Shown here: positions 1,519-16,605 of the stretch, one piece after another
Numbering within the stretch: position 1 is the stretch's first letter
How the letters are laid out: each line of letters begins with the position of its first letter
DNA from: a virus
Lineage: Duplodnaviria; Caudoviricetes
Direction: 5' to 3' (one strand)
IMG/VR virus record: IMGVR_UViG_3300047565_000101
Span: 1 to 64,000 of that record
Length of the DNA: 64,000 nt
The notes under the pieces: generated by a model
Seen by the model: the letters and a program-made list of their open reading frames with translations, nothing else
Told to the model about the DNA's origin: nothing
Databases searched by the model: none
Translations under genes and position numbers: made by a program

Positions 1519-1673
1519 GTCGGGTCAGTTTATAGATTCCACACTGTAAGGCTTAACCGAATCCCCCGACGAGATCGTGCAGTAGACTCCTAGTTGCCCC
1601 TGCAATTTGCGTAAGCAGTCGACGTTCAGTTTAATAGCTAGTTAAACTATAGTCTGCAATACAAATGTTCCCC
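1519..1673 (-). ncRNA. Putative structured non-tRNA RNA(s) between tRNA-Trp and tRNA-Ser
   Basis: Stems AGACT/AGTCT, TAGTTTAA/TTAAACTG, CTGC/GCAG, GTCGGG/CCCGAC, GGATTC/GAATCT; no credible ORF. Confidence 0.5.
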
Positions 1674-1749: not shown

Positions 1750-1936
1750 CCCTATCCTGTAAGAAGTACCAACGCCAATTTAATGGGACGACTTCTATGT
1801 TGCAGTAGGGCCGATTAATAAGTCTACGAGCAAACTAACTTACTAATCTGATATATGAGGCTTTACATAAGCTCGTTGGCCTCCAGTTGTCCCCGTCGGG
1901 AGTCAGTCTATACACCTGCCACTCAACCTTAATATC
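1750..1936 (-). ncRNA. Putative multi-domain structured RNA between tRNA-Leu and tRNA-Trp
   Basis: Three abutting stem-loops (1850-1936, 1813-1848 with 12-bp stem, 1750-1810) with cross-complementary segments. Confidence 0.55.
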
Positions 1937-2011: not shown

Positions 2012-2015
2012 TTAG

Positions 2016-2089
2016 CGATCCCGAACGGACTTGAACCGTCGACCTATGCCGTGACAGGGCATCGCTCTAACCAACTGAGCTACGAGACC
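2016..2089 (-). tRNA. tRNA-Asp(GTC)
   Basis: ATGCC-CT-GTC-AC-GGCAT; canonical D and T arms. Confidence 0.94.
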
Positions 2090-2093
2090 AAAT

Positions 2094-2120
2094 GAGTAGT
2101 TTTAAATCATACTCAGGATC
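2094..2120 (-). ncRNA. H-type pseudoknot motif, copy 1
   Basis: GATC-CT-GAGTA-T-GATT-TAAAAC-TACTC; covaries with copy at 15497-15523. Confidence 0.6.
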
Positions 2121-2138: not shown

Positions 2139-2318
2139 TTAAAATTCATTCTCGACTCTGGAACCAAACAATCGTGACCAGATACTAGATACGCTATTGA
2201 TCCAGTAATCATACTCTACATAGATTACATCAAAGTTAACACTTGTATAACCTTCTTCATCTAGGTATTCAAGGAAATCATCATCTAGCTTTGTCCAGCC
2301 TAATCTTTCATGAATCAT
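2139..2318 (-). CDS. 59-aa hypothetical protein
   Basis: MIHERLGWTKLDDDFLEYLDEEG...; TAATG coupling to groES. Confidence 0.6.
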   Translation of the reverse strand: MIHERLGWTKLDDDFLEYLDEEGYTSVNFDVIYVEYDYWINSVSSIWSRLFGSRVENEF

Positions 2319-14886: not shown

Positions 14887-15069
14887 CTACTTAGGATTAT
14901 CGGTTTTATAGAACCCGCTGCCTTTAAATTGAATTCCAGTTGGAGTGTAATGTCTTCCCATCTGTTTCTCGCATAGCTCACATGTTTGCTCTGGCTTATA
15001 GTCAGAAATCGACATCTTTACTTGTACTACTTCATTATTACATTCACACTTATACTCATAAACTGGCAT
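14887..15069 (-). CDS. FmdB-family zinc-ribbon protein
   Basis: MPVYEYKCEC...CELC...FKGSGFYKTD. Confidence 0.88.
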   Translation of the reverse strand: MPVYEYKCECNNEVVQVKMSISDYKPEQTCELCEKQMGRHYTPTGIQFKGSGFYKTDNPK

Positions 15070-15476
15070 TACTTACCGCTTTTCTTTCTCGCTTTTGCTA
15101 AGGCTTCAAAGTCTTTTACCTTAGTCTCACCCATATATCCCCAAGCATATCCATCTTCGATCATAGATTCATTAATAGACTTATCTTGTCCATCTACATA
15201 AACCCACCCTAAAACACGACCATACTTTTCTGAACTATCTGGAAGTTCTGTCTTAATAACTATTTCTTTTGCATCCTTAAGCTTGTACTTTAGATACTCT
15301 TTTGATTCTAAACCTAATACTTTTTCATTCTTATCTTTTGTGCGGGATTCAGGGGTATCGATTCCCGCCATGCGTACTCGCTTCATTAATGAAATATCGA
15401 AACCAAGATCTATATCTACATCTATAGTGTCCCCATCTATTACACCAATGAGCTTCTTAACACGGTATTCGTACAC
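15069..15476 (-). CDS. Thermonuclease (SNase family)
   Basis: VIDGDTI, RVRMAGIDTPE, EKYGRVLG, SINESMIEDGYA. Confidence 0.9.
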   Translation of the reverse strand: MYEYRVKKLIGVIDGDTIDVDIDLGFDISLMKRVRMAGIDTPESRTKDKNEKVLGLESKEYLKYKLKDAKEIVIKTELPDSSEKYGRVLGWVYVDGQDKSINESMIEDGYAWGYMGETKVKDFEALAKARKKSGK

Positions 15477-15496: not shown

Positions 15497-15568
15497 GAGC
15501 AGTTTTAACACATGCTCAGGTGTATCCTAAGGCGTAACTAGGCCCGTATCACACGAAATGGCGTGATA
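15497..15568 (-). ncRNA. Structured leader or sRNA: two hairpins plus pseudoknot copy 2
   Basis: TATAAT at 15574-15579; TATCACGC/GTGTGATA; CCTAG/TTAGG; ACAC-CT-GAGCA-T-GTGT-TAAAAC-TGCTC. Confidence 0.6.
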
Positions 15569-15579
15569 GATATATTATA

Positions 15580-16605
15580 TCAAATTCTTGAACCAGATTC
15601 AAGCAGGGAAGCACTAGATACCTTGATAAATCTTACATGATCCTGAAATGATCTAATATTGTCCTGACCTGAGTATGAGATCCCGCTTTGAAGGTTATTC
15701 TTCATTCCCAATATGGTATTTGAAACAGGTCCTTTATTAGAAATAATTCCAGAAACACCCTCTACATGAGGAACTTCTCCTGGTGGCAAATCAAACTCTG
15801 GCTTTTCAATCTGACTATCTAGGGAAGCCAGTCCTCTAAATTTATTACTACCGCATTCATCATGACCAGCAAACATGCTTCCCATCATAACTGCACTTGC
15901 TCCTGCTGCAATCGCCTTTACAATATCTCCATTTTGCTTTATGCCACCGTCTGAAATTAATCCATTAATAGGATCATCTTCTATATAATTATATATATCC
16001 ATAATAGATGCTAATACTGGAACTCCAAATCCAGTTGAAGTTCTTGTCGTACATGCAGCACCGCCACCTATACCGACACGAACAGAGTCGGCACCAGCTT
16101 CAATTAGATCAAAGTATGCTTCATAGGAGGCTACATTGCCAGTCATAATATGTACGTAATCAGGGACTATGAATCTCAAGCTCTTAATTGCATCTACAAC
16201 AAGTTCTGTGTGACCAACTGCAGTATCCAAAAGAATTACTCTTGTTCCCGTAGACAATACGGCATCAATGAATTTTTTGTCGTATGCCTCATCTACATTT
16301 ATTGCAAACCCAGCTCTTGCACCGATTAACTTTATTTGAGATAAGCGATCTTCTTTTGATTGAAATCTTGTGACAAAACCAATTCCACCATAAAGATAGA
16401 TTTCCTCTAACATTTTTACTGAGCTAATGTATTCCATCGGCGCAATGATAAAAGGCATTCCTAACTTTATAGTGGAATTAGGTCTTGCTGGCACACCTAT
16501 CTCGACTGATATATCAATATGACTTCTTGACTTAATCTTAGACTTCTTTGGAACAAGAAGGATATCGTCAAAGCATAAAGAGCTTGTATCTTTGTCGAGA
16601 TACAT
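15580..16605 (-). CDS. IMP dehydrogenase / GMP reductase family protein (no CBS domains)
   Basis: [61 protein letters not shown]. Confidence 0.9.

Follow-up and report, generated by a model that had tools for sequence, protein, structure and literature searches.

A covarying 27-nucleotide pseudoknot of phage genomes, placed beyond stop codons and ahead of tRNA genes, as a candidate RNA boundary element

What is the role of a 27-nucleotide (nt) motif that stands just ahead of a transfer RNA (tRNA) gene cluster in a Caudoviricetes phage and recurs, with both of its stems rewritten, ahead of a nuclease gene of the same genome? The window in which it was noticed covers the opening 64 kb of an IMG/VR phage record 104.8 kb long (IMGVR_UViG_3300047565_000101; 38.9% G+C), and a sequencing-run search listed the phage DNA only in freshwater DNA metagenomes and in no RNA run. 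The original prediction, made from the letters of the window, described a motif present twice that folds as an H-type pseudoknot, assigned it to no named riboswitch or ribozyme, and guessed at an exonuclease-blocking, processing, or protein-binding RNA element. We report here that the motif is a covarying pseudoknot that keeps a floor of 5 nt from upstream stop codons, stands before tRNAs, and is exchanged in some relatives with a terminator-type hairpin, the last three features being new here. We propose, at a probability of about 0.4, that the knot is a mechanical boundary element that caps and protects RNA 3' ends.

A pseudoknot covarying in both stems

Both 27-nt strings were found on the minus strand exactly as they had been written. 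Copy 1 (2094..2120, minus strand) reads GATC-CT-GAGTA-T-GATT-TAAAAC-TACTC from 2120 down to 2094. Its first stem (S1) pairs 2120-2117 with 2108-2105 and its second stem (S2) pairs 2114-2110 with 2098-2094, while the loops are CU (L1, 2116-2115), U (L2, 2109), and UAAAAC (L3, 2104-2099), all on the minus strand. Copy 2 (15497..15523, minus strand), read from 15523 down to 15497, is ACAC-CT-GAGCA-T-GTGT-TAAAAC-TGCTC, with S1 ACAC/GUGU, L1 CU, S2 GAGCA/UGCUC, L2 U, and L3 UAAAAC. The open reading frames (ORFs) and ten tRNAs in the copy-bearing part of the window all lie on this same strand.

The count of two turned out to be right for the window and too low for the genome. A descriptor that admitted only copies fully paired in both stems, with the loop letters CT and AAC, gave six in the 104.8 kb, as compared with 0 to 1 per shuffle in 20 shuffles (chance expectation about 0.15), and a looser descriptor gave no further ones in this genome. 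The four additional copies are all plus-strand and fall beyond the window (genome positions 92932, 93236, 94455, and 98843). They have their own complementary S1s (CGAC/GTCG, AGAG/CTCT, TCTC/GAGA), and in one of them S2 is changed to GGGGA/TCCCC.

Covariation was determined on sets fetched without a pairing requirement. The pattern CTGAGYATNNNNTAAAACTRCTC matched at least 118 IMG/VR contigs; S1 was fully paired in 101 of 131 pattern-retrieved instances and at three of its four positions in the other 30, with 45 distinct S1 pairs among the 131. With a second pattern, which left the three inner S2 pairs free, S2 was fully paired in 100 of 120 instances, in forms including GGGCA/TGCCC, GGACA/TGTCC, GGTCA/TGACC, GCGCA/TGCGC, and GTCCA/TGGAC. 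In an alignment of 101 sequences, standard pairs filled 92.7% of the cells, versus 70.3% in shuffles (0 of 500 as high) and 27 to 43% in slid controls. Seven of the nine pairs vary on both sides; S2 is 94.3% paired, and its three inner pairs are among those that vary on both sides. Since the nested folding energy is only -4 to -9 kcal/mol, the case for the structure rests on covariation.

The consensus is NNUC-CU-GNNNA-U-GANN-UAAAAC-UNNNC. The pair closing S1 (C4-G13) is C-G in 100 of the 101 aligned copies, the exception being the G-C pair of genome copy 93236. C5, A11-U23, AAAC, and U23 are invariant among the copies, with AAAC, U23, and, mostly, C5 having been fixed by the retrieval patterns. 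At position 6 only U and, rarely, C occur; G7-C27 is replaced by A-U in some copies; and the position after A11 is U in 87% and A in 11%. In the flanks, only A28 (66%) and a 3' side poor in G and rich in U are conserved; A28 may pair with U6 as the sixth pair of S2, which would shrink L1 to a single C. Altogether 14 of the 27 nucleotides are near-invariant across phyla, and they cluster at the helical junction. From the covariation, and by analogy with coremin and luteovirus pseudoknots, we infer a fold in which S1 has 4 bp and a closing C-G pair, a C-Y loop crosses S2, S2 has 5 (possibly 6) bp, a single U forms the junction, and the A-rich UAAAAC loop lies in the S1 minor groove.

The predicted architecture, an H-type knot with conserved loops and compensatory changes in both stems, was thus borne out. 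No named family could be attached to it either: in Rfam 15 nothing overlapped any copy at the gathering score or at E<=10 in the window, four motif loci, 19 bacterial loci, and a 1.6-kb stretch with three copies. The same scans gave only tRNAs, one tmRNA, one L10 leader, and noise.

Placement at gene ends and exchange with a hairpin

We then determined where the knot lies relative to other features in 370 non-redundant instances. Retrieval relied on sequence patterns, the ORF calls were naive, and relatedness among many loci means that the counts are not independent events. The nearest upstream ORF was on the same strand as the knot in 244 cases versus 50, which speaks for an intergenic element acting as RNA. 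The distance between the knot's first base and the preceding stop, counted for upstream ORFs of 60 codons or more, was never 0 to 3 nt, once 4 nt, and then 5 nt in 49 cases, 6 nt in 42, 7 nt in 7, 8 nt in 19, and 9 nt in 16, followed by a long tail; about 60% of the copies lie at least 10 nt past a stop or have no nearby ORF. The mRNA exits the bacterial ribosome five nt past the A-site codon. Given this exit point, the 5-nt floor means that the knot always lies clear of a terminating ribosome, which would otherwise have to open it. Toward the next start codon the spacing was broad (at least 9 nt, mostly 20 to 40 nt). A hard floor on the stop side together with this broad spread on the start side therefore assigns the knot to the upstream gene.

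The relation to tRNAs is one-sided. A knot stood 3 to 13 nt ahead of a same-strand tRNA in 34 non-redundant cases (Asp, Asn, Thr, Arg, Met, Gly, Ile, Trp) and within 60 nt after a tRNA in two only. TTTT occurred within 12 nt downstream of 24% of the copies, versus 3.5 to 6.5% at control positions. Promoter-like sites were rare and equally frequent upstream (10) and downstream (11) of the motif, and at five loci a -10 box was found 4 to 11 nt ahead of the knot. A reading of the motif itself as a promoter was discarded, since it has no conserved -35/-10 hexamers and its variable bases covary as pairs.

The upstream genes fall into 90 clusters, the commonest neighbor being the phrog_1221 gene (49 of 230). 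In about 70 of 80 phrog_1221 relatives the knot lies 6 to 11 nt past the stop, usually followed by tRNA-Asp. At ten of the 80 loci, representing five sequence variants, a GC-rich hairpin occupies the site of the knot and is followed by the same TTTTTATTT tract and the tRNA (L333, L369, L373, L387, and L402, compared with L334-L410). At this phrog_1221/tRNA-Asp site the knot and a terminator-type hairpin are therefore interchangeable. Relatives of an Hsp20 gene, in which the knot is kept in some, replaced by another small hairpin in some, and missing in others, were less informative.

In the phage genome itself, the copies at 93236 and 94455 each lie 5 nt past a stop, the latter behind a phrog_1221 gene (genome 93436-94449). 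After each comes a terminator or hairpins and, beyond these, the next promoter, an order that would place the two copies, as judged from these predicted signals, at the end of a transcript. Three of the six genome copies have a hairpin right after the motif.

Two details of this region are recorded as side observations. Small hairpins directly follow the knots at genome 93263-93293 and 94482-94600, one of them with a UACG tetraloop (ACGC-UACG-GCGU), and TGTGA-N6-TCACA boxes and TGTCRG-N10-TATAAT promoters follow these knots too, a layout of repeated early-gene cassettes. Copy 93236-93262, alone in having a G-C closing pair, has S2 GGGGA/UCCCC, one that could instead pair with the adjacent terminator (GCCCCC...GGGGGC); this copy may be a switch or a decaying one.

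Candidate functions of the knot

As a boundary element, the knot would stay folded just outside the footprint of the terminating ribosome and would stop processive enzymes moving along phage transcripts, thus acting as a modular boundary. In this genome it would most likely do the job of a terminator-type hairpin without a GC-rich stem, capping the 3' end of the upstream cistron. Such an end could be made by an RNase P cut at the tRNA, by an endonuclease cut in the G-poor, U-rich flank, or by termination in the following U-tract, and 3'-to-5' exonucleases would be left with the knot and a few free bases. Because the knot lies 3 to 13 nt ahead of tRNAs, RNase P cleavage would leave it with only a short tail; tails of this kind are too short for most 3' exonucleases to load. 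Among the hosts of the carrier phages, Vibrio and Erwinia have 3' exonucleases and are not known to have a 5'-to-3' exonuclease.

The direction from which enzymes would be blocked is addressed by two kinds of evidence. The context, namely, the adjacency to stops, the position before and not after tRNAs, the hairpin exchange, the U-rich flanks, and carriers whose hosts have no known 5' exonucleases, points to the 3' end of the upstream cistron. Homology points to a roadblock on the 5' side, against RNase J, RNase E scanning, or ribosomes.

Several points weigh against the knot being a 3'-end cap. Copy 2 and a few others appear to lie in 5' leaders, 4 to 11 nt or tens of nt past promoter-like sites, and such sites are, as given above, as common upstream of the motif (10) as downstream (11). 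The hairpin and the knot found at the same site could share some other function, e.g., protecting the next RNA from its 5' side or terminating transcription. That 14 of 27 nt are conserved across phyla exceeds what a plain barrier needs. Finally, coremin, the closest characterized relative, blocks enzymes that approach from the 5' and not from the 3' side (PMC6546385).

If the knot is indeed a boundary element, the presence of a 27-nt knot with a coremin core in phages of six bacterial phyla would mean that the fold is effective on enzymes of very different kinds. It would further account for the way in which phages define where RNA segments end and how long they last without resorting to GC-rich hairpins, and synthetic biology would gain a very small, host-independent insulator or stabilizer. 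The 5-nt stop-codon rule and the natural hairpin exchange make the question directly testable.

A broader proposal, which we put forward tentatively, is that DNA phages and some bacteria use the same tertiary knot as the exoribonuclease-resistant RNA (xrRNA) coremin. The knot would then represent the first class of exoribonuclease- or ribosome-stalling RNAs of prokaryotic viruses, a universal, host-independent roadblock across domains that punctuates and stabilizes pieces of polycistronic RNA. We know of programmed nuclease-resistant RNAs only from eukaryotic RNA viruses. In the literature searched, no paper joined coremin with phages, full-text searches for the motif letters and for pseudoknot, phage, and stop codon returned nothing relevant, and two 2026 genome-language-model preprints make no mention of the motif.

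Coremin (xrRNA-C), which occurs in beny-, cucumo-, and numerous further eukaryotic RNA viruses, consists of a 3- to 5-bp hairpin with an obligatory C-G closing pair (G-C abolishes function) and a YGAD or YGNNAD loop, the spacer GUUAAACUAC, in which A16-A20 are essential, and a second hairpin, hp2, of at least 4 bp that is obligatory for Xrn1 resistance (PMC6546385). Natural coremin loops, which range from 4 to 8 nt, still stall Xrn1 at up to 8 nt, CCGAAA loops fail in the assay, and scanning ribosomes are blocked as well (PMC10520033). The variant xrRNA-WCC is a true H-type pseudoknot, its A-rich loop being placed by modelling in the minor groove of S1; frameshifting is stimulated in the absence of hp2, but Xrn1 stalling still requires hp2 (PMC10321173). 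Coremin and its Watson-Crick variants stimulate -1 frameshifting without hp2 and were selected in an E. coli frameshift screen (PMC10321173, PMC10520033).

The phage element can be aligned with coremin/xrRNA-C over about 13 positions in order and identity (U3 C4, C...G...A D, G A, U (U/A) A A A C, U...C). Both have a short first stem closed by C-G, a loop that opens with C, contains G, and closes in A followed by D (A, G, or U, never C), and, after the stem, U-(U/A)-A-A-A-C-U, in which the A, C, and U residues are essential in coremin. Both also lie in 3' untranslated regions (UTRs), near stop codons, and between genes. The coremin-spacer letters U-A-A-A-A-C-U are matched, AAAC-U being present in every pattern-selected copy, the retrieval patterns having fixed it. 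In a tolerated variant, the base before AAAC is U, and coremin's A20-C21 is replaced by the covarying S2 strand.

The two elements also differ. The phage loop is C-Y-G-NNN-A-U, with G third instead of second, and five covarying Watson-Crick pairs link it to the 3' strand. The obligatory second hairpin is absent from the phage element: a hairpin starting 0 to 2 nt past the motif was found for 7.8% of the 370 copies and for 7.8% in shuffles, so hp2 is not enriched. The carriers, moreover, are DNA phages and bacteria, where Xrn1 does not exist. As both the loop rule and the second hairpin fail, the phage element is a variant of coremin and not a member of its class; by analogy, it probably works like coremin. 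Within the broad guess of the original prediction, the roadblock part is the one best supported, by the roughly 13-nt coremin/xrRNA-C identity and by a placement that follows the ribosome footprint.

Compared with xrRNA-WCC, the phage element has the same antiparallel H-type layout of S1, a short L1, and an S2 formed from loop and 3' spacer by Watson-Crick pairs. The S2 of xrRNA-WCC, however, has 3 bp and includes the C of AAAC, whereas the phage S2 has 5 to 6 bp and begins after that C; the L1 of xrRNA-WCC is a single required G, and that of the phage knot is C-U or C-C. A second relative in architecture is the frameshift knot of luteoviruses and enamoviruses, of the beet western yellows virus (BWYV) type, whose L1 has 2 nt and begins with C, whose junction is a single U, and whose A-rich loop lies in the minor groove. 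The phage knot shares all of these features as well as the compact size; BWYV was named as comparable in size (PMC10321173). Unlike BWYV-type knots, the phage knot has no slippery heptamer upstream and lies after stop codons, not inside ORFs; the BWYV knot, for its part, does not stall Xrn1.

Among the alternatives to the boundary element, that of a bacterial-virus xrRNA, in which the knot would halt enzymes arriving from the 5' side (RNase J, RNase E scanning) and so shield what lies behind it, be it the following cistron, the array of tRNAs, or the leader of the nuclease mRNA, ranks first, although we consider it doubtful. It would account for the ordered identity with coremin (U3, C4, C5, G, A, D, G, A, U, AAA, C, U, C), which extends to the closing C-G pair and to the AAACU that Xrn1 stalling depends on (PMC6546385), and it is consistent with a published coremin model of the same topology, with an A-rich loop in the S1 minor groove (PMC10321173), and with the stalling by natural loops of up to 8 nt (PMC10520033). 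The location of copy 2 in a promoter-proximal leader and the -10 boxes at five loci, which would put the knot at the very 5' end of the transcript, fit as well. Set against this are the missing enrichment of hp2, strictly required in both coremin types, and a second loop base that is U or C instead of the required G, the published assay having found that CCGAAA loops fail. Several copies, furthermore, precede a terminator or the next promoter, and tRNAs require no 5' shield, yet the knot stands before and not after them. The Vibrio and Erwinia phages, too, have hosts that are not known to possess a 5'-to-3' exonuclease.

A ribosome-directed role is unlikely. Here the knot, hard to open and held at the mouth of the mRNA channel with the stop in the A site, would insulate the downstream RNA from read-through or scanning ribosomes or would tune termination or recoding. 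The 5-nt floor and the modes at 5 and 6 nt match the spacing classically kept between recoding pseudoknots and the A-site codon, the architecture resembles that of luteovirus frameshift knots, and in bacterial small-ORF loci (see below) a UGA stop lies inside the knot itself. Frameshifting without hp2 and the block to scanning ribosomes by coremin and its Watson-Crick variants would also agree with it (PMC10321173, PMC10520033). The floor, however, is equally explained by steric exclusion and genome compaction, and roughly 60% of copies lie at least 10 nt from a stop or without a nearby ORF. For those before tRNAs and beside promoters there is no obvious ribosomal role. No slippery heptamers were found ahead of the spacer, where stop codons stand instead. 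The 5- and 6-nt spacers, moreover, put the knot in different frames, two of the three frames close inside it, and no consistent extended product would result.

Less probable still is an unconventional intrinsic terminator or pause site, with S2 closing behind RNA polymerase in the manner of a terminator hairpin. With terminator hairpins and 3' hairpins of the repetitive extragenic palindromic (REP) type, which stabilize the cistrons upstream of them, the knot shares the position after the stop, the exchange at a homologous site ahead of the same U-tract, and the U-rich tract that often follows (a fourfold to sevenfold enrichment of TTTT within 12 nt). The geometry would also fit, the end of S2 and the end of the U-run being 7 to 9 nt apart in relatives such as L335 and L342. 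The phage element differs from such hairpins, however, in being a pseudoknot with conserved loops and AT-rich stems, and three-quarters of its copies have no U-tract; copy 2 is followed by UUUACUUUU and copy 1 by AUUU and then a tRNA. The weak nested energy given above speaks against it too, one genome copy itself precedes a normal terminator, and tRNAs or genes only a few bases further on must be transcribed through the knot.

Two further readings are highly improbable. One is a ligand-binding aptamer or a very small self-cleaving ribozyme, suggested by the fourteen near-invariant nucleotides at the helical junction, by a phage-rich, cross-phylum, multicopy spread like that of the hammerhead, twister, and pistol ribozymes, and by a size and topology reminiscent of preQ1-I. 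The element has, however, no expression platform and no link to gene function, its upstream genes falling into 90 clusters, and the Rfam searches gave no match even at E<=10, preQ1-I included. No natural ribozyme as small as its 27 nt is known, and a coremin-type fold already accounts for the conserved residues.

The other, which we hold to be no less improbable, is a mimic of the tRNA acceptor, U(-1)/G(+1)-C(72)/A(73), that RNase P or RNase Z would cut to punctuate polycistronic RNA. U6, G7-C27, and A28 (66%) fit the preferred context of RNase P, and in plant viruses the pseudoknotted acceptor arms of tRNA-like structures serve RNase P as substrates. An ACCA behind the knot is enriched about 10-fold, but it follows only 17 of the 370 copies, many of them related. 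A-U is tolerated at G7-C27, the stacked helix would have 9 to 10 bp and no T-loop, and S1 itself ties up the 5' "leader."

That the motif acts at the DNA level, as a site for a protein or as a hairpin in the single-stranded DNA of a mobile element, or that it is a repeat arisen by chance, can practically be dismissed: short palindromic DNA repeats can keep their pairing too, but the two interleaved stems both covary, the sense-strand bias is strong, the copies within the genome differ by compensatory changes instead of being identical, and six were found where shuffles predict about 0.15.

Surroundings of the window copies and distribution of the motif

Copy 1 lies 18 nt past the TAA stop of a 59-amino-acid (aa) ORF (2139..2318, minus strand) that has no PHROG match, and 4 nt (AUUU) ahead of tRNA-Asp(GTC) (2015..2089, minus strand), the first of the tRNA cluster, as the original prediction had it. 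Within the cluster there are long non-tRNA spacers at window 1519-1673 and 1750-1936 (minus strand), for which Rfam gave only weak, sub-threshold plastid-UTR matches overlapping the tRNA genes themselves.

Copy 2 lies 56 nt past the TGA stop of a 341-aa dehydrogenase-like ORF (phrog_9582; 15580..16605, minus strand). It is directly followed by a U-rich tract (UUUACUUUU) and then by the AAGGAGG (15488-15482, minus strand) of a 135-aa thermonuclease-like ORF with a GTG start (15069..15476, minus strand). The motif ends 8 nt ahead of AAGGAGG, in agreement with its predicted position just before the ribosome-binding site of the thermonuclease. A sigma-70-like promoter, TTGAAT-17-(TG)TATAAT (15574..15602, minus strand; 10 of 12 matches, from a consensus scan only), overlaps the stop of the upstream ORF, and this putative promoter would place copy 2 about 45 nt inside the nuclease mRNA leader. 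Two small hairpins (AUCAC...GUGAU and CCUAG-UUACGCC-UUAGG) lie between the promoter-like site and copy 2 (window 15524-15573, minus strand), so that the leader is predicted to be structured throughout.

Over 230 IMG/VR contigs carry the motif. Among cultured phages, the carriers infect Mycobacterium (Labelle, a Patiencevirus), Synechococcus, Nostoc, Erwinia, Vibrio, Paracoccus, Lentibacter, and Prevotella; Cyanophage S-RIM4 and Loessnervirus phages of Erwinia are among the cultivable ones. The hosts of carrier phages span Actinobacteria, Cyanobacteria, Proteobacteria, Bacteroidetes, Firmicutes, and Saccharibacteria. The exact motif was also found in 85 stretches of GTDB assemblies, many of them from Saccharibacteria, Aminicenantes, Clostridia, and Syntrophaceae, with a few contigs binned as archaea. 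The commonest variant was not found in E. coli genomes, and a megablast of both window sites against 50,697 phage records gave no near relative. In three bacterial matches (L185 from Anaerolineae, L202 from Poribacteria, and L129) the motif is, or lies within, a CRISPR spacer flanked by direct repeats, from which it follows that the hosts acquired spacers from knot-bearing phage regions.

At 15 loci of bacterial assemblies the motif belongs to a conserved, stand-alone small gene composed of a promoter, a ribosome-binding site, an ORF of about 20 aa, and a terminator. The peptides follow the pattern M-[KR]-R-F-x-V-P-R-x-A-H-C-x-x-G-C-x3-S, belong to no Pfam or NCBIfam family, and end at the UGA that lies inside the pseudoknot (CC-UGA-G). 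Variation at third codon positions shows that the ORF is coding, and it was this variation, together with the encoded 20-aa peptide, that ruled out a cobalamin riboswitch as an explanation of the conserved sequence upstream in these loci. The idea that the UGA of the motif is the usual stop of phage genes was likewise dropped, as it holds true only for this bacterial small-ORF family. In Aminicenantes the small gene adjoins Peptidase_C26 and xanthine-dehydrogenase-like genes.

Ten Saccharibacteria loci share a near-identical 45-nt sequence (...GGCCACUAGACCCAUCGUCCUGGACAUGACCUGAAAAAUGUCU) ahead of the pseudoknot and, after it, a 111-aa ORF starting MSEWTEKDFESYT, an arrangement that may represent a larger conserved RNA or a prophage module.
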